Assembly (NCBI GenBank): GCA_965261445.1 | Contig: CBDHCW010000025.1 | Coordinates: 13,870-77,869, forward strand | Reading direction: 5' to 3' | Source: Dehalococcoidia bacterium | GTDB lineage: Bacteria > Chloroflexota > Dehalococcoidia > Lucifugimonadales > QGNO01 | Length of the DNA: 64,000 nt | Part shown: one piece after another, positions 6,461-26,906 of the stretch | How positions within the stretch are numbered: the stretch's first letter is position 1 | How the letters are laid out: every line of letters begins with the position of its first letter | The notes under the pieces: generated by a model | The model's input: the letters and a program-made list of their open reading frames with translations, nothing else | Told to the model about the DNA's origin: nothing | The model's database searches: none | Made by a program: the position numbers and the translations under genes

Positions 6461-6751
6461 ATGGCAAGCTATCTGGTATTGGGCAACTATACGGACGAGG
6501 GCATACGGAACATCAAGGATTCTCCTGACCGTCTTCAGGCAGCCAAGCAAGCTGTCAAGGATGCCGGGGGCAGGGTGATCTTCTTCTACCTAACCTTGGG
6601 CCAATACGACTTCGCGTCTCTGGTGGAAATCCCCAACGATGAAGTCGCGGCAGCAATCTTGCTCAGGCTGGGCGGCGAGGGCAATATCCGAACCACCACC
6701 CTAAAGGCATTCACGGAAGACGAGTACCAGAGCATTGTTGCTTCTGTGTGA
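6461..6751 (+). CDS. GYD domain-containing protein
   Basis: 96 aa starting MASYLVLGNYTDEG...GQYDFASLVE, the typical GYD-family pattern. Confidence 0.75.
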   Translation: MASYLVLGNYTDEGIRNIKDSPDRLQAAKQAVKDAGGRVIFFYLTLGQYDFASLVEIPNDEVAAAILLRLGGEGNIRTTTLKAFTEDEYQSIVASV

Positions 6752-9676: not shown

Positions 9677-10777
9677 ATGAAAGCTTTAGTTGTGGGCGGC
9701 ACGGGCCCCACCGGGCCATTGATCGTTCAGGGGCTTCTGGATCGCGGCTATGAGGTCACCGTGTATCATCGTGGCTTCCATGAGCCTGACGACCTTCCCC
9801 AAGTCCATAGCCACGTGCATGGTGACCCCTTCACCAAAGAGAGCTTTGAAAGAGACGTAGAAGGCCAGGCCTGGGACATAGTCGTATCGATGTATGGTCG
9901 CCTTCGCCACATCGCCGACGTGGTTGCCGGCCGTACTCGCAAACTGGTTGGCGCAGGCGGGCCCAGCTTCATCCGCCCCGAGCATTTGACCTTCCCCCAA
10001 GGGTTAGAGATGCCCCTTCCCGAGGAGTTCCCCACCTATACGGAGCGCGACCTCAACCCGTACGGTTTCGCCATTGCACACACCGAGCGGCAGGTAATGG
10101 AGCACCACCGCAACGGCGATTTTGCCGCCGTTATGTTCCGCTATACCTCGGTGTACGGGCCAAGGGCCCCCCGACAGTGGATGTGGTCAATTGTCAAGCG
10201 CGTACTGGACGGGCGCAAGCGTATCATAATCCCCGGCGATGGAAGCCAGCTCCGCCTCACCTGCTATGCCGAGAACGCCGCCCACATGGTTCTCCTTGGC
10301 TGCGACAAATCGGAAGGCGACGGTCATATCTTCAACTCCGTCGACGAAGTGGGATACACCGTCAGTGACACGGTCCGCATCGTTGCTGAGGCGCTTGATC
10401 ATGAGTTCGAAATGATAGAGATAAGCCATCCCATGGCCTACGATCTGGCCGGCGGCTATTCTACGCGGCGTACCGGTCAGCTCAACGTCTACAGCATGAA
10501 GAAGCTGCTGGGCTACAGGGACGTTGTCCCGCCGGATGAAGGTATGCGGCGTTCGGCCAGGTGGATGGTGGACAACTGGTCCAGCCTTGACCATGAACAG
10601 ATGCAGGTCCTCATGGCGGATCCCCTTGCCTACGATATAGAGGACCAACTGATTGCCTCCGCCAAGGAGTGGGCGGGGAGTGTGGAGAGTTCCATTCCCC
10701 AGCCGGAGATTCCTCAACTGGACTCATCGCGTGACTGGCGCGGCGCTTTCAGGCCGCAGCAACCGGGGTCTTCCTGA
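9677..10777 (+). CDS. NAD-dependent epimerase/dehydratase family protein
   Basis: MKALVVGGTGPTGP Rossmann start, preceded by a GAAGGAGG RBS. The longer track ORF from 9494 reads through REP-like repeats and I judge it spurious. Confidence 0.75.
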   Translation: MKALVVGGTGPTGPLIVQGLLDRGYEVTVYHRGFHEPDDLPQVHSHVHGDPFTKESFERDVEGQAWDIVVSMYGRLRHIADVVAGRTRKLVGAGGPSFIRPEHLTFPQGLEMPLPEEFPTYTERDLNPYGFAIAHTERQVMEHHRNGDFAAVMFRYTSVYGPRAPRQWMWSIVKRVLDGRKRIIIPGDGSQLRLTCYAENAAHMVLLGCDKSEGDGHIFNSVDEVGYTVSDTVRIVAEALDHEFEMIEISHPMAYDLAGGYSTRRTGQLNVYSMKKLLGYRDVVPPDEGMRRSARWMVDNWSSLDHEQMQVLMADPLAYDIEDQLIASAKEWAGSVESSIPQPEIPQLDSSRDWRGAFRPQQPGSS

Positions 10778-11201
10778 GCGGGTCACCCCCCGTCGGATTG
10801 CTTCGCTGAGTTTATCCTGAGCCTAGCCGAAGGAATGAAATGAGGGGACACACTAGGGCAACCACGAGGGTTGCCCTGGCACCTGTTCCCGGCCCATTGT
10901 CTTGGGCGCCCACAGGGTATCCCCCGCGATACTGCTTGGCACTACGTCATCCCTCTGGGAATCAGGCCATTTTCGACTTGTGCTATGAGGCCCGACCTCT
11001 CCAGTCCAAGTATCTTTGCACTTCGGCCTCGGCAGTCTTTAGCGGGGCGGACGCTCTCCTGCCTGCTGAACGCTTCTGGCTTTTCTTCCGGGCCTTGTTC
11101 TTCTTCTTACTCACCGCTCAACCTCTTGAGAGGAAATCATAGCATGGGCTTCCGCGTCTGTTCAATGAATTCCCGTAGTGTGGAGCTAGGGGTACACCCG
11201 C

Positions 11202-11230
11202 TTGACTTCACGCAGGCGCTAGCCGATACT
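11202..11230 (+). promoter_or_regulatory. Candidate sigma70-type promoter upstream of bioY
   Basis: TTGACT (11202-11207), a 17-nt spacer, then GATACT (11225-11230). Confidence 0.3.
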
Positions 11231-11258
11231 CTTGCCTTGTTACCGCTGAAATATACCT

Positions 11259-11945
11259 TTGGGGAGGCACGGTCATATGCAGGCAAGCGCACCCGTCTAC
11301 GGCGCTCTCGGCACTCTGCGTCGAGTCGACAAATCCCTCTTCGACATGCTCTTTCCCACCGCTCACACGGGGCATCGAGTTCTTGCGTCGGTATTGCTCA
11401 TCGCCCTGATGTTCGTTTGCGCCAAGGCCAGGTTCTACCTTCCTGAGAATCCGACGCCTATAACCCTGCAGACCTTCGGCGTGCTTCTCACCGGCGGGGT
11501 CATGGGCTGGAGGTGGGGAGCTGGGGCCGTGCTTGGCTATATCGGGCTGGGCGCATTGGGCCTTCCCATGTTCGCCAGCTCCGACCCGTGGGCGTTCCGT
11601 ACTCCCGTTGATGCTTGGAACGCTTCCATAGCAGGCGTCACCGGCGGATACATCATCGGTTTCGTAGTGGCCGCGGCGGTGACGGGATATCTCAGCCAGA
11701 TAGGATTTACCCATTCCGGCTCCCTGTGGCCCGTTGCCCTCGGCGGACTGGCCCTGTACATTCCCGCGCTGGTGTGGCTCTCCGTCATGGACTTCGGATG
11801 GCCGGCGGAAGGCAAGCTGTTCGTCGACGGGATGTACATCTACATGCCCGGCGACATCGTCAAGATGCTCGGAGCTTCACTCATCGTTACCGGGCTATGG
11901 AATCACGGAGAGCGCCTGAAAGGGCTCTTTAGGAAAAAGCCGTAG
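11259..11945 (+). CDS. bioY: Biotin transporter BioY
   Basis: PITLQTFGVLLTGGVMGWRWGA and the downstream TM pattern are typical of the BioY S-component. The true start may be one of the internal Met codons. Confidence 0.8.
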   Translation: MGRHGHMQASAPVYGALGTLRRVDKSLFDMLFPTAHTGHRVLASVLLIALMFVCAKARFYLPENPTPITLQTFGVLLTGGVMGWRWGAGAVLGYIGLGALGLPMFASSDPWAFRTPVDAWNASIAGVTGGYIIGFVVAAAVTGYLSQIGFTHSGSLWPVALGGLALYIPALVWLSVMDFGWPAEGKLFVDGMYIYMPGDIVKMLGASLIVTGLWNHGERLKGLFRKKP

Positions 11946-11971
11946 CGGCCACCAGTGAGGGCGGCGTAGGC

Positions 11972-12679
11972 TTACAGCCGTTCCTTCTTCATGTAGAGGC
12001 GGCACACCAAATCTGGCGAGATTCGGAACTTGGTGCCATGATCACGTAGTCCTGGACTACCGGGCTTCTGCTCGCGACAATCGAAGTCAATGACAATTGA
12101 CCCGCGTAACACCTCTGCAATGAAGTCAACGAGGTTAAATACCTCGAAGGCGTCAGCTCTGCGGAAGCGCACGGACTGGCCATTCTTCTCGCCCTGTACC
12201 GCCAAGAGCCTGCGAAGCTTGGCCCCGGCTGCGGCCATTATCTCTTCATGCGACCAGTAGGGGATCGGACCATTGCCCTTCAATGGTCGAACTACGATTT
12301 GCCCGCCGCTATCGTCCACCCTGAAACGGTCGGACCTCCCCTTTATGGTATGCCGGAAGCTCAGTCGCCCCTCTTTGTCCTTCCATCCGTATCTCCGCAC
12401 CATGTAGCGCATTATGGCTTCTGGACCATCTGCTTCCTTGTGGAAAAGGGTGATTAAGCTAGTCTTAGCGGTATACCATTTGAGTTCCCATCCTACAGCG
12501 TCGGGAATGTCCAATGCCCCAGCAGTCAGTCCCAACAAGTCCTCAAGGAATCGCCCAGGCCCGCCCGTGCCACCATAGTGCGAGTCTTGTGGTAAATCAT
12601 ACCAGCCGTGGTCTATGATTGTCCTGACGCGAGCGAATAGTTCGGATCGGGTTCTTGGTGGTTTGTCAGGAAAGGTCAC
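11972..12679 (-). CDS. MvaI/BcnI-family type II restriction endonuclease
   Basis: The 235-aa ORF aligns by eye with my recollection of BcnI. Matching segments are G..GRFLEDLLG, DAVGWELK (D...E.K), LITLFHK, RDHGTKFRI and a C-terminal LYMKKERL. Its GTG start overlaps the methyltransferase stop (GTGA). Confidence 0.8.
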   Translation of the reverse strand: MTFPDKPPRTRSELFARVRTIIDHGWYDLPQDSHYGGTGGPGRFLEDLLGLTAGALDIPDAVGWELKWYTAKTSLITLFHKEADGPEAIMRYMVRRYGWKDKEGRLSFRHTIKGRSDRFRVDDSGGQIVVRPLKGNGPIPYWSHEEIMAAAGAKLRRLLAVQGEKNGQSVRFRRADAFEVFNLVDFIAEVLRGSIVIDFDCREQKPGSPGLRDHGTKFRISPDLVCRLYMKKERL

Positions 12680-13101
12680 TTGATTAGCTGCTTTGCAGTG
12701 AGGACGCGTTCTCTAGCAACTTTGCAGTATTCTTCGGATATGTCTATGCCTATCCAGTCACGCCTAGCCGATTCGGCAGCTATTGCCGTTGACCCGCTTC
12801 CCATAAATGGGTCTAGTACGATTTGGGCATGGGTAGCTTCGATGCATCTTTGTGCCAACTCTACAGGGAAAGGTGCTGGGTGAGGATTGTGGGCTTCCTG
12901 TGGGATACTCCATACATCTCCTTGTGCATTTGCCTTGGGAGCCAGCCGGAATCCAGGATTGGCTATCAGATAGATGACCTCGTAGGTTGGCAGAAAGTAG
13001 CCGGGGTTGAAGTTGATGCCGCCCCGGCGGTGCCAGATGATGATCTGCCGGAGTGGGAACCCTTCAAGAATATCATTCCTGTCTTGCAACAGGCCTCCCT
13101 G
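12676..13101 (-). pseudogene. DNA methyltransferase, C-terminal fragment (AdoMet-binding motif I), separated from its 5' part by an IS
   Basis: DPFMGSGSTAIAA motif. The reading frame continues exactly from the N-terminal fragment once the IS and one CTG copy are removed. Confidence 0.85.
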
Positions 13102-13118
13102 TCAGGTGGACCCCATCA

Positions 13119-14054
13119 TCAGGACAGCGGTGAGGCTAAAATAAGAGAGTCTACCGCTGGGGTGTCTCGTAAACCTTCATCCGATGGTAAGGCTTGTGGA
13201 TGTTCCAGTAAACACCTTTGTGGGCTCACTGCTTGGAACACCTGACCCGGTGACCGATAGCCCAGGGCTTGATGGGGCCGCTCTTGGTTGTAGAAGGCCA
13301 GATAAGCCCCAATCCCCTTTCTGGCCTCAGTCCCATTTTGGTATGCCTTCAGGTACACCTCCTCGTACTTGATGCTGCGCCACAGCCGTTCCACGAAGAC
13401 GTTGTCCATGCACCGGCCCCTGCCGTCCATGCTCACTTGAACGCCTTGCGCCAGCAGCATGCTGGTGAAGGCCTCGCTGGTGAACTGGCTGCCCTGGTCG
13501 GTGTTGAAGATCTGTGGCCGACCCTTGCTCAAGGCCTCTTCCAGAGCCGCAACACAGAAGTCTACCTCCAGGGTGTTGGACAGCCGCCAGGCCAGCACGT
13601 AGCGGCTGTGCCAGTCCATGATGGCCACCAAGTAGAGGAAACCCCGAGCCATGGGTATGTAGGTGATGTCGGTGGCCCACACCTGGTTGACCCGGTTGAT
13701 CTCCAGCCCCCTGAGCAAGTACGGATAGACCTTATGCCCTGGGTTTGGCTTGCTGGTGTTGGGACGCCGGTAGATGGCCTCCAGGCCTATCAGCTGCATC
13801 AGCCGGCGGACCCGCTTGCGGTTGACCTGGTGTCCGTGATTTCTGAGCCAGGCAGTCATCCTTCTGGATCCGTAGAAAGGTGTCTTCAGGTACTGTTGGT
13901 CTATGAGGGCCATCAACTCCAAGTCCTCGGCGCCGGCCTCGGTTGGCAGGTAGTACAACGAGGAGCGGCTGATACCCAGCAAGGCGCACTGGCGCACCAG
14001 AGACAGCTTCGGTTCTTCTCGGTCAATCATGGCCCGGCGTTGGGACCGGCTCAC
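13119..14054 (-). CDS. IS3-family transposase OrfB (DDE integrase core)
   Basis: WATDITYI...[10 protein letters not shown]...[16 protein letters not shown] pattern. It lies in the -1 frame relative to orfA. Confidence 0.9.
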
Positions 14055-14335
14055 AACCCGAAGCTCCGTGACAAAAAATCCCGTTCCACCTTGAGCTGCC
14101 CAATCTGTTGGTAGAGCTGGGCAGTGAGGACCTCTTGGTCCTTCTCCTGGCGTCCAGCACCATTTTCAAAGAGGTGCGGCGCCCCCTGAATCAAGGCCTT
14201 CTTCCAGGCATGGATCTGGCTCGGGTGGACTTCAAACCGGCTGGCCAGCTCTGCAATGGTGTGCTCCCCCTGGAGCGCGGCCAAAGCCACTTTGGCCTTG
14301 AAGACTGGGCTGTGCTTCTTACGTGTTTGCTTCAT
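14051..14335 (-). CDS. IS3-family transposase OrfA (HTH)
   Basis: 94 aa, [39 protein letters not shown]. Ends in a leucine-zipper-like segment. Confidence 0.9.
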
Positions 14336-14414
14336 GTCCTGCTCCTTGTTTCCGTCCTATTTTAGGAGCGGGACTCTCTCTTAGCCACCTGTCCGAATTT
14401 TGGGGTCCACCTCA

Positions 14415-14759
14415 CTGGATGCGCCATTTGTGGTTATAGAAGATAGCCCCATCCTGCCGAAGCACCCGCATCATGGACTTTAGGCATCTTCGCTGCCACG
14501 CAACATATTCCTCATGGGGCATAGCGTCGTCATGGTCGGTATATCCTTCTAGCAGGGCGGCTTGAGGCCATTTGCCTCCGCTTCCGTTCTTTAAGCCGTT
14601 GCCGGTGCTGTTCTTGATGTTGTAAGGGGGGCTGGTAACTATCAGGTCTATGGAGCCAACCGGCATCTTGTCCATTAGCTCCACACAATCGCCCATGTGA
14701 ACCTTGCCAAGCCAAGCTTCCATCATGTGTCTTGGCGTTCGAGTTGCTGATTCAGCCAT
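14415..14759 (-). pseudogene. DNA methyltransferase, N-terminal fragment (catalytic SPPY motif IV)
   Basis: DLIVTSPPYN motif. The ORF runs into the IS end and is stopped by the terminal TGA of the IS. The likely start is the ATG at 14759. Confidence 0.85.
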
Positions 14760-15044
14760 CAGGTCGTTAAAGTTCACCCGATAAGTTCCTCGTAGGGCAA
14801 ACGAAGACCGCAAGATACACCTAGAAGGGAGTTTATCCTCATTTCTCCGTATGCTTGCCCAAGATCCCCGCTAGCCCAAGGTCGGCCAAGTAGCGGTGAA
14901 ATCTCCCTGCAGGAGCCACGCCATGTCCGTAGAGTCATCTTAGCATCGCAGAAGGTCACGATACAAGATTCCTATGTCGGGAAGTTCCAAGTTGTTCGTA
15001 GAGGCTGACTAAGTTGGTCCATCATGAGGAATTATTTCTGACGC

Positions 15045-24152: not shown

Positions 24153-24300
24153 CCGCCCTAAGTCTTCCGTTCAAACGGCATCATGCGTCTGCCGGTCACG
24201 GGATCCTTATCCTCGTGACCAAGGGACGCAGGAGTAGGGTGATAGAATGAGAGACGGAGTATAGCTTGGATGAGTAACTTGATACGAAGAACTAGAGCAA

Positions 24301-25239
24301 ATGATAAGTATTGCCAAAGAATTCTATGTGGCGGAATTGAAAGTGCCATCGTATTGGTATCTGGGCAGGGAGATAAACGGTGAAATTCCCGAACCTGCTG
24401 GCTTTGAGATAAACAGAGGATATTGGGTACTCCGCCCCCAAAAGGAACAACCTGAGTTTGATTTGATTGTTGAGTTCGGCTCTGCAACTCTCAAAGATGC
24501 TGAAGACCACGCTTTGAAGGTGGGCAGGATACTTAGTTCCATAGCTTCGGCACATGGAGGGTATCCAAGTGGGGCACCGAAACTCCAACGTGTTGCCTCC
24601 ATAGATCGTGACGGATACCTGAAGTCTCAACACCAATACTGGTACGGTGACAACTCACAAAAGCTCTGGCCCTATGATGGACACGCGAAGCAAGCGTTTC
24701 TAAGAAATCTCGAAATCATCTCTTTGATGGATCATAAAGAGAGATACAAACTACTTGCAGCAATTCACTGGTACGGAATATCCATAAGCACCGATGATCC
24801 AACAGTCAGTTACGTTGCTGCATGGACAGGACTTGAGGTCATTGGTGTAGTTATAAACAGCATATTTCATCCCAACGGACATAAAGCTCCCTGCCAGATT
24901 TGCAAAAATAAAGCAGGCAAAGACAGAGATCGTAAAATGGCCGGTATTGAACACGCATTCGGTTATCTCGCAAGGGAGTCTTTGCCTGGGTCTCCTTCGG
25001 AAGGAAATAGGAAGCTAATTGCAGACGATCTAATCAAGGGTTTCGCGGCTGAAGAAGCTGGCAAGTTGCGTAATTCTGTTGTTCATGGTCTGGAAGAATT
25101 TGAAGTGCTCCTAGAGAAATGTTCGGAGGTCAGACGGCACCTGATTCACATTCTCAACGTCTCAATTCTAACCGCAATGGCCTCATCAGCTTCCGCAAGG
25201 GTAACTGAGGTGGACCCCAAAATTCGGACAGGTGGCTAA
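24301..25239 (+). CDS. HEPN-like (Rx4H motif) protein whose 3' end is replaced by IS3 copy 2
   Basis: The KLRNSVVHG segment fits the Rx4H HEPN motif within a predicted helical C-terminal half. The last 11 codons and the stop come from the IS end. The region has low GC. Confidence 0.5.
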   Translation: MISIAKEFYVAELKVPSYWYLGREINGEIPEPAGFEINRGYWVLRPQKEQPEFDLIVEFGSATLKDAEDHALKVGRILSSIASAHGGYPSGAPKLQRVASIDRDGYLKSQHQYWYGDNSQKLWPYDGHAKQAFLRNLEIISLMDHKERYKLLAAIHWYGISISTDDPTVSYVAAWTGLEVIGVVINSIFHPNGHKAPCQICKNKAGKDRDRKMAGIEHAFGYLARESLPGSPSEGNRKLIADDLIKGFAAEEAGKLRNSVVHGLEEFEVLLEKCSEVRRHLIHILNVSILTAMASSASARVTEVDPKIRTGG

Positions 25240-25284
25240 GAGAGAGTCCCGCTCCTAAAATAGGACGGAAACAAGGAGCAGGAC

Positions 25285-25569
25285 ATGAAGCAAACACGTA
25301 AGAAGCACAGCCCAGTCTTCAAGGCCAAAGTGGCTTTGGCCGCGCTCCAGGGGGAGCACACCATTGCAGAGCTGGCCAGCCGGTTTGAAGTCCACCCGAG
25401 CCAGATCCATGCCTGGAAGAAGGCCTTGATTCAGGGGGCGCCGCACCTCTTTGAAAATGGTGCTGGACGCCAGGAGAAGGACCAAGAGGTCCTCACTGCC
25501 CAGCTCTACCAACAGATTGGGCAGCTCAAGGTGGAACGGGATTTTTTGTCACGGAGCTTCGGGTTGTGA
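25285..25569 (+). CDS. IS3-family transposase OrfA
   Basis: Identical in translation to the copy 1 OrfA. Confidence 0.9.
25542..25548 (+). promoter_or_regulatory. Candidate -1 programmed ribosomal frameshift heptamer T TTT TTG (orfA to orfB)
   Basis: X XXY YYZ pattern in the orfA zero frame (gaT TTT TTG), 19 nt before the orfA stop. The -1 frame is open into orfB. The equivalent site in copy 1 is at 14072-14078. Confidence 0.5.
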
Positions 25570-26501
25570 GCCGGTCCCAACGCCGGGCCATGATTGACCG
25601 AGAAGAACCGAAGCTGTCTCTGGTGCGCCAGTGCGCCTTGCTGGGTATCAGCCGCTCCTCGTTGTACTACCTGCCAACCGAGGCCGGCGCCGAGGACTTG
25701 GAGTTGATGGCCCGCATAGATCAACAGTACCTGAAGACACCTTTCTACGGCTCCAGAAGGATGACTGCCTGGCTCAGAAATCACGGACACCAGGTCAACC
25801 GCAAGCGGGTCCGCCGGCTGATGCAGCTGATAGGCCTGGAGGCCATCTACCGGCGTCCCAACACCAGCAAGCCAAACCCAGGGCATAAGGTCTATCCGTA
25901 CTTGCTCAGGGGGCTGGAGATCAACCGGGTCAACCAGGTGTGGGCCACCGACATCACCTACATACCCATGGCTCGGGGTTTCCTCTACTTGGTGGCCATC
26001 ATGGACTGGCACAGCCGCTACGTGCTGGCTTGGCGGCTGTCCAACACCCTGGAGGTAGACTTCTGTGTTGCGGCTCTGGAAGAGGCCCTGAGCAAGGGTC
26101 GGCCACAGATCTTCAACACCGACCAGGGCAGCCAGTTCACCAGCGAGGCCTTCACCAGCATGCTGCTGGCGCAAGGCGTTCAAGTGAGCATGGACGGCAG
26201 GGGCCGGTGTATGGACAACGTCTTCGTGGAACGGCTGTGGCGCAGCATCAAGTACGAGGAGGTGTACCTGAAGGCATACCAAAATGGGACTGAGGCCAGA
26301 AAGGGGATTGGGGCTTATCTGGCCTTCTACAACCAAGAGCGGCCCCATCAAGCCCTGGGCTATCGGTCACCGGGTCAGGTGTTCCAAGCAGTGAGCCCAC
26401 AAAGGTGTTTACTGGAACATCCACGAGCCTTACCATCGGATGAAGGTTTACGAGACACCCCAGCGGTAGACTCTCTTATTTTAGCCTCACCGCTGTCCTG
26501 A
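25566..26501 (+). CDS. IS3-family transposase OrfB (DDE)
   Basis: 311 aa, with 2 amino-acid differences from copy 1. Confidence 0.9.
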
Positions 26502-26582
26502 TGATGGGGTCCACCTGAAACGGGGCATTACGAATTCCATCCAGATGGACGCGTCTCCCTCAAGTTCAGCCGATATCTCCGA

Positions 26583-26906
26583 ATGTCACTCTTCCTCAAC
26601 GAGTGGATAGGGGGGTTCCAACATCTGTCTGAACCAGATGTTTATAATAACGATGGATCATTTGTAGCAACTGGCGGAGTTGAATGGCGTGTACCTGAAG
26701 AGATATCCAAGCTCATTGAGTCCAGCAGCTCAGAAAAATTCAGAAGGGATCTAGATATCGTCAGTTTAGAAGACGACTCTGTGATCACTGGTTTAGAAGA
26801 CGACTCTGTGATCACTGAATGTGCAACATGGCATAACAGGCCTCCGGAACCTGAATGGGAAAATCCTCTAGAGTGGATTGTTGAACATCCTCCACTTCAC
26901 AACTGA
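26583..26906 (+). CDS. Hypothetical acidic small protein containing a perfect 9-aa duplication
   Basis: 107-aa ORF in the low-GC islet, with LEDDSVITG/LEDDSVITE encoded by a 27-bp tandem duplication. I recognise no family. Confidence 0.3.
   Translation: MSLFLNEWIGGFQHLSEPDVYNNDGSFVATGGVEWRVPEEISKLIESSSSEKFRRDLDIVSLEDDSVITGLEDDSVITECATWHNRPPEPEWENPLEWIVEHPPLHN
26764..26817 (+). repeat. Perfect 27-bp tandem duplication (2 copies)
   Basis: gtttagaagacgactctgtgatcactg occurs at 26764-26790 and again at 26791-26817. Confidence 0.95.

Follow-up and report, generated by a model that had tools for sequence, protein, structure and literature searches.

Restriction–modification (R-M) systems are regarded as self-maintaining, in that loss of the methyltransferase (methylase, M) lets the nuclease (R) kill the cell. 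Translational coupling of the two genes is well established for some R-M operons; Cfr9I is reportedly an example of a Type II operon in which M and R genes both overlap and are coupled. Here we describe an operon of the MvaI/BcnI kind, located in a 64-kb stretch of a Dehalococcoidia contig (CBDHCW010000025.1; the whole stretch is referred to hereafter as the window), in which an insertion sequence (IS) of the IS3 family splits the methylase gene and leaves an uninterrupted nuclease open reading frame (ORF) downstream.

Of the two closest described nucleases, MvaI uses an active site composed of Glu36, Asp50, Glu55 and Lys57, and reads both C:G pairs of its target via a loop of three residues, His223-Asp224-His225, wherein the backbone oxygen of Asp224 binds N4 of the outer cytosine in such a way that an N4-methyl group would clash (PMC1874612). 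BcnI works as a monomer, cutting the two strands in succession (PMC3203586).

Set against these systems, the locus is best rationalized, in our view, as a chromosomal Type II operon (methylase first, nuclease second) into which an active element of the IS3 family has recently jumped, inactivating it, with nuclease synthesis lost along with the methylase; we give this reading about an even chance of being correct.

Results

An IS3-family element splits a beta-class methylase gene

All R-M and IS features at the locus lie on the minus strand (Table 1). Read in that direction, the methylase frame containing DLIVTSPPYN terminates at a TGA that the IS itself supplies as its first three bases (14414–14412), and the frame that resumes after the IS runs through DPFMGSGST to reach the TGA of the methylase itself (12676–12678). 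An initial annotation of this DNA, made from the letters alone, had proposed that these are halves of one gene; its ORFs, motifs and coordinates are all as claimed. Removal in silico of 13102..14417 (the IS plus one CAG) fuses ...HKWRIQ in frame to GGLLQDRND..., yielding an enzyme of 261 amino acids (aa) when counted from the GTG start, not the ~273 aa first estimated. That the two halves form a single family member is confirmed by comparison with a real protein: in a search of a collection of 5.8 billion proteins, the rejoined methylase proved 100% identical to P0001 (261 aa) across 100% of the query.

The rejoined sequence gives a single match to the Pfam family PF01555 N6_N4_Mtase, spanning profile positions 1–220 of 221 (137 bits, E 1.2e-39), and the IS breaks this continuous match at codon 121/122, after FYNH and before the IIW block. 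Motif IV (TSPPY, residues 50–54) precedes motif I (DPFMGSGST, near the C-terminus), which is the order of the beta class. SPPY in motif IV is a mark of N4-cytosine enzymes, and the top Protein Data Bank (PDB) match is 8s9n, named 'DNA cytosine-N4 methyltransferase' (E 1.4e-35); on account of this motif and this closest solved relative, the predicted product is N4-methylcytosine (m4C). The pairing of the nuclease with an m4C enzyme, as suggested in the initial annotation, is favored by both observations, with CCWGG/CCSGG as no more than candidate sites of modification.

The R-M genes are also matched by PADLOC. One PADLOC model, PDLC03305 'MTase_II' (513 positions; matched by 11972..14777 of the window), is met by the methylase at positions 7–241 (E 1e-109) and by the nuclease at 283–361, which suggests that fused or merged M and R proteins went into its construction.

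The inserted element is, as annotated, a 1313-bp IS3 element flanked by a CTG/CTG duplication, with ends exactly at 13102 and 14414. On the minus strand it runs 5'-TGAGGTGGACCCCA...TGGGGTCCACCTGA-3', the terminal inverted repeats agreeing at 13 of 14 positions. The orfB product scores 291.6 bits against NCBIfam NF033516 transpos_IS3 (cut-off 160), and a T TTT TTG heptamer just 5' of the orfA stop is a putative −1 frameshift site, which would give rise to an OrfAB fusion. The IS ends are fixed independently by a second copy in the window, since this spans exactly the same 1313 bases (99.47% identity, 7 mismatches); with two near-identical copies, each bearing its own target duplication, the IS is evidently active in its host. 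Mis-assembly was considered and ruled out, as a repeat-induced error would not yield a perfect 3-bp duplication around exact IS ends.

The second copy splits a gene (24283..25205 and 26522..26903) that becomes an ORF of ~430 aa upon removal of the IS and one AAC; this restored ORF has no Pfam or PADLOC match.

Sister strains retain the pre-insertion allele

An uninterrupted gene for P0001 occurs on two long contigs (L010 and L011) from a single ENA metagenome assembly, and its chromosomal setting matches that in the window: the shared neighbors are ChrA, methylase, nuclease, BioY, epimerase and M1 peptidase, preceded on L010 only by GNAT. Both contigs contain the empty site ATCCAGGGAGG, and their alignment to the window breaks off precisely where the IS begins and ends. 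In the R-M DNA compared (1508 bases), the window differs from L011 at two positions and from L010 at three. Differences this few support a recent insertion, as the initial annotation had supposed, and the two contigs supply the IS-free alleles in related strains that it recommended looking for. The methylase is likewise uninterrupted, and collinear with our reconstruction, in nine more distant relatives from GTDB genomes and in L012–L014. A 24-mer of the upstream flank, invariant in the ENA sister strains, found no exact match in JGI metagenome contigs.

When the IS is excluded, the region ~10200..15000 of the window contains a ~3.5-kb block nearly identical to L010/L011 (4–5 differences), which takes in BioY and the 3' end of the epimerase gene as well as the R-M operon, whilst the DNA on either side is ~5–8% divergent (10–19 differences per 200 bases). 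To judge by this pattern, the block looks like the result of a recent recombinational transfer or sweep between strains.

Public gene calls for L010/L011 (10927..11490) shorten the nuclease to 187 aa, using an internal TTG start (codon 49) and missing the GTG at the methylase stop; the nucleases of L012–L014 are called full length, and the shorter call is an annotation artefact, because of which exact-sequence look-ups of the nuclease fail. Exact look-ups in sequence collections gave no match for the window nuclease (in its 235-aa and 187-aa versions) or for the neighboring ChrA.

The nuclease is a predicted MvaI/BcnI-type enzyme with a complete active site

The ORF downstream of the methylase is undisrupted and its start overlaps the methylase stop as GTGA, both as first described. 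Its assignment to the MvaI/BcnI family likewise holds, by profile, by sequence and by fold: it matches PF15515 MvaI_BcnI at 86.3 bits (cut-off 25; E 4e-24), residues 18–229 aligning to profile positions 4–227 of 227, and retrieves R.MvaI (E 1.3e-12) and R.BcnI (E 4.2e-5) from the PDB. An AlphaFold model derived from 35 homologues has a predicted local distance difference test score (pLDDT) of 90.6, and a Foldseek comparison places it closest to the DNA complexes of MvaI (2oaa, template modelling (TM) score 0.79) and BcnI (2odi, TM 0.78), with MutH at TM 0.41; the modelled fold is thus the two-lobe, MvaI/BcnI/MutH-like one.

The four catalytic residues of MvaI align to E46, D60, E65 and K67 of the window nuclease, all of which are present without substitution. 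D60, E65 and K67 are conserved in 119–120 of 120 homologues, all four positions are essentially invariant, and at each of the 60 columns with a conservation of 98% or more in this set the window nuclease has the conserved residue. The residues by which MvaI reads CC.GG in the major groove (His223, His225, Arg230, Asp207 and Arg209) are retained in part: H214 and R219 are conserved, R212 takes the place of His223, and the Asp207/Arg209 region is ambiguously aligned. On account of the latter two features CCWGG is at most a candidate site for this nuclease. The description of the nuclease as intact is accurate for the ORF; the encoded protein has a single derived change in the loop that reads DNA, N213D, which we weigh below.

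A conserved stop–start overlap suggests that the insertion silences the nuclease

The nuclease start and methylase stop share a 4-base overlap of the form NTGA in 17 of 17 intact M-R pairs (15 pairs from 14 related loci, together with L015 and L016), a sample that spans 62% to 100% protein identity and uses ATG, GTG or TTG as the start; in 12 of the 15 the NTGA start is the only in-frame start available. No purine-rich ribosome-binding site is visible before the GTG of the window nuclease. Given such strict conservation, translational coupling is the most likely route to nuclease synthesis, and the nuclease has probably been silenced by the insertion. In mechanistic terms, the nuclease would lack an independent translation start, and ribosomes finishing the methylase would restart at the overlapping NTGA. 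Once the IS3 element had transposed into codon 121/122, ribosomes would instead halt at the IS-borne TGA, ~1.7 kb upstream, such that nuclease synthesis would collapse together with that of the methylase, residual nuclease arising only via weak restarts at an internal TTG (13089). Collapse of the nuclease alongside the methylase would explain how the lineage survived the loss of protection. Should the nuclease be a monomeric, strand-by-strand cutter like BcnI, a low residual level would also be less dangerous. Silencing by polarity had been one of three outcomes entertained in the initial annotation; the strict conservation of the NTGA overlap speaks for it, the silencing itself being a prediction from that architecture.

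Several points weigh against the proposed joint loss. The IS is co-oriented with the operon, and the strand they share shows no terminator-like site within the IS, making read-through into the nuclease gene plausible. The orfB stop (13119) falls 30 bases before the in-frame TTG (13089), which has GGAGG four bases 5' of it and makes a 137-aa product possible; translation of this 3' fragment could still couple into the nuclease. The coupling argument, moreover, draws on how the genes are arranged and on what is generally known of R-M genes that overlap.

Scans for promoters and terminators are uninformative about polarity: the terminator scan performed near chance (five sites, 2.7 expected), and the promoter scan returned fewer sites than expected by chance, a single one that lies within the nuclease ORF. 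A terminator-like hairpin ~20 bases past the nuclease stop (Table 1) is a possible end of the operon, to go by its consensus match. Rfam and tRNA scans found nothing near the locus.

Table 1. Features of the interrupted R-M operon and of the IS element, in window coordinates.
Feature	Position	Strand	Remarks
Methyltransferase, 5' fragment	14415..14777	−	GTG start at 14777; residues 1–121 including motif IV (TSPPY); equals P0001 residues 1–121
Methyltransferase, 3' fragment	12676..13098	−	Residues 122–261 plus stop; motif I (DPFMGSGST); equals P0001 residues 122–261
MvaI/BcnI-family restriction endonuclease gene	11972..12679	−	235 aa, uninterrupted; E46, D60, E65, K67
GTGA overlap (nuclease GTG, methylase TGA)	12676..12679	−	4-base overlap
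Codon 213 (GAT, Asp)	12041..12043	−	AAT (Asn) in IS-free alleles; aligns to MvaI Asp224
Terminator-like hairpin and T-run	11938..11950	−	~20 bases past nuclease stop; consensus match only
IS3-family insertion sequence	13102..14414	−	1313 bp; same orientation as R-M operon
Target-site duplication, upstream copy	14415..14417	−	CAG (CTG on plus)
Target-site duplication, downstream copy	13099..13101	−	CAG (CTG on plus)
IS orfA	14051..14335	−	94 aa; HTH_Tnp_1; intact in both IS copies
IS orfB	13119..14054	−	311 aa; HTH_21, rve, rve_3 integrase core; −1 frame relative to orfA; intact in both copies
Slippery heptamer T TTT TTG	14072..14078	−	orfA frame, just 5' of orfA stop; read from sequence; putative frameshift site
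Second IS copy	25206..26518	+	99.47% identical over same 1313 bases (7 mismatches); own 3-bp duplication AAC; interrupts another ORF

Candidate restriction sites are plentiful

The window contains 236 CCWGG and 201 CCSGG sites (observed/expected 0.90 and 1.09, respectively); the count of CCNGG sites that the initial annotation had put forward as a check for avoidance, when run on these 64 kb, reveals no avoidance of CCWGG or CCSGG. As such sites are plentiful and not depleted, a need to silence the nuclease or to protect the DNA does exist; for the same reason, the counts offer no clue to specificity or to nuclease pressure, whether past or present.

The most under-represented of all NNWNN/NNSNN pentamers in the window is GGWCC (observed/expected 0.71; 228 against 323, both strands), and CTAG (0.68) and GATC (0.78) are also low. 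These deficits may reflect another restriction system in the genome.

Relatives decay in the opposite direction

The nuclease subfamily extends to 608 homologues at E up to 1e-5, with the named loci mostly coming from Chloroflexota metagenome genomes. In L009, the closest GTDB relative (nuclease 85% identical), an intact methylase accompanies a nuclease with a 1-base frameshift (~6483..6504), which may represent genuine decay or else a fault of long-read assembly. L006 (5237..9027) has a tandem M-R-M-R arrangement whose nucleases are 69% and 63% identical to that of the window; the first nuclease has a CGA-to-TGA nonsense change at codon 96, and both methylases are intact. No broken methylase was found among the related loci. 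Because the relatives show a damaged nuclease beside an intact methylase, the window, with its damaged methylase and whole nuclease, represents an unusual direction of decay, and is a single, very recent event.

Two further loci, L015 (1302..3711) and L014 (1103..3506), have an IS1595-type transposase gene (Tnp) directly 5' of the methylase with a 4-base overlap, forming a Tnp-M-R unit; in L015 this is bordered on both sides by ORFs with UxuA matches, as if inserted into uxuA. The arrangement suggests that the R-M pair travels as IS1595-like transposon cargo.

Alternative explanations

The foremost rival to joint loss supposes that the nuclease is still made, and that the chromosome is protected by another methylase of the same or overlapping specificity elsewhere in the genome, the operon methylase being already dispensable. 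The subfamily lends itself to such redundancy, in that it is widespread and mobile, found in varied genomic contexts (which differ among L001–L009 and L014–L016), and can be present as paralogous pairs in one locus, the two tandem methylases of L006 being 78% identical (tblastn). Absence of decay in the nuclease ORF also fits an enzyme still in use, but the insertion is so recent that an undecayed ORF tells little on selection; further, none of the other ORFs of the 64-kb window contains an [SDN]PP[YFW] or C5-methylase motif. We judge protection by a second methylase to be unlikely, at perhaps half the weight of joint loss.

An extension of the silencing mechanism would see the NTGA overlap as a safety interlock, whereby any polar or truncating lesion of the methylase would automatically shut off the nuclease, rendering an otherwise lethal loss survivable; as a further possibility, N213D could be compensatory. 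This idea we consider speculative and rather improbable. Were it true, the window and the IS-free sister alleles would constitute a natural matched pair with which to show the NTGA interlock.

Substitution N213D might alternatively act in its own right, by weakening or retargeting DNA recognition to the point where methylase loss becomes tolerable. It is the sole amino-acid difference between the nucleases of the window and L010/L011 (a single synonymous change lies 32 bases away), and since Asn213 is shared by 13 of 13 related nucleases of full length at the loci compared and by all listed relatives of 72–92% identity, Asp213 is derived in the window lineage. The position is moreover a sensitive one: the aligned MvaI residue, Asp224, contacts the outer cytosine at N4, where a methyl group would clash with it; the contact is made through the main chain and not the side chain (PMC1874612). 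N213D was at first suspected of being inactivating, Asn being invariant in the first 13 relatives, and was dropped as the main explanation given the presence of Asp in the wider family. Asp is native at this position in MvaI and BcnI and occurs in 15 of 120 homologues, two of which (L015 and L016) belong to M-R operons of this subfamily that are intact and have overlapping genes, and on these grounds the substitution is probably neutral, not inactivating; one non-synonymous plus one synonymous change in 708 bases also fits drift. A causal role for N213D is in our estimation a long shot.

Just as improbable is a minority or short-lived genotype, in which the IS would be carried by a fraction of the population, or by dying or heavily SOS-stressed cells, and would have been fixed in the consensus by the assembler. 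The IS is evidently active here, having left two near-identical copies with their own duplications, and two sister strains from one ENA sample hold IS-free alleles with otherwise identical R-M DNA; the heterogeneous population envisaged in the initial annotation finds support only insofar as these alleles exist. The flanks of the sister strains are, however, 5–8% divergent, making them other strains and not reads of the same clone, and assembly into a 64-kb contig demands reasonable abundance.

Very improbable, finally, is a split enzyme that would maintain protection by reassembly of both methylase fragments (1–121, and the 137 aa from TTG 13089): fragment complementation is known for some DNA methyltransferases, the 5' fragment ends at the IS-borne TGA without foreign residues and the 3' fragment has its TTG with GGAGG four bases upstream, but the break lies inside a continuous PF01555 match and parts motif IV from motif I such that neither piece is a folding unit, the GGAGG is merely native Gly-Gly codons, and expression of the 3' piece needs read-through from a transposase gene, typically weakly expressed.

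Discussion

Both R-M genes fall clearly within known families, the IS is typical of the IS3 family, and gene disruption by an IS is ordinary decay. What lies beyond the routine is the order of loss, together with the availability of the exact pre-insertion allele; a literature search for IS-split methylase genes beside intact nucleases found no specific precedent. The window offers a fresh, natural methylase-minus, nuclease-plus genotype, accompanied by a sister IS-free allele one nuclease residue apart, and hence a test case for how an R-M system may be lost without host death. It also adds a well-supported MvaI/BcnI-type subfamily with hundreds of members.

Comparison with known systems

The element conforms to the IS3 family in its orfA (helix-turn-helix) and orfB (DDE, rve) genes in 0/−1 frames, slippery T TTT TTG, 1.3-kb length, 3-bp target duplication (3–5 bp in the family) and short terminal inverted repeats. 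IS3-family termini are usually 5'-TG...CA-3'; the left end here begins with TG as usual, whereas the right end is ...CCTGA (its complement starting TC) and not the usual ...CA, a minor departure, with the IS3 assignment resting on the transposase.

Relative to overlapping, coupled M/R operons (of which Cfr9I is said to be one), the window operon is alike in placing the methylase first, in its 4-base stop/start overlap and in having no evident separate ribosome-binding site; it differs in that coupling is here deduced from conserved architecture alone. The methylase shares a full-length PF01555 domain and the motif order IV (SPPY) to I (FMGSG) with the cytosine-N4 methyltransferase of PDB 8s9n/8s9m and with beta-class amino-methyltransferases (M.PvuII, CcrM, M.RsrI), from which it differs in being split by an IS and in having a function predicted from sequence.

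The nuclease is of the same family and fold as BcnI (R.BcnI, CC/SGG; PDB 2odh, 2odi), at ~21% identity. Its nearest described counterpart is MvaI (R.MvaI, CC/WGG; PDB 2oa9, 2oaa), the best PDB match by both sequence and fold. Identity to MvaI is ~22%, Arg212 substitutes for His223, the Asp207/Arg209 region does not align cleanly, and the window system has an interrupted methylase; the two nucleases nonetheless have in common the PF15515 domain, the catalytic Glu/Asp/Glu/Lys set, pairing with an amino-methyltransferase, and a C-terminal reading loop of the form x-D-H-G-T-x-F-R, in which the equivalents of His225 and Arg230 are kept.

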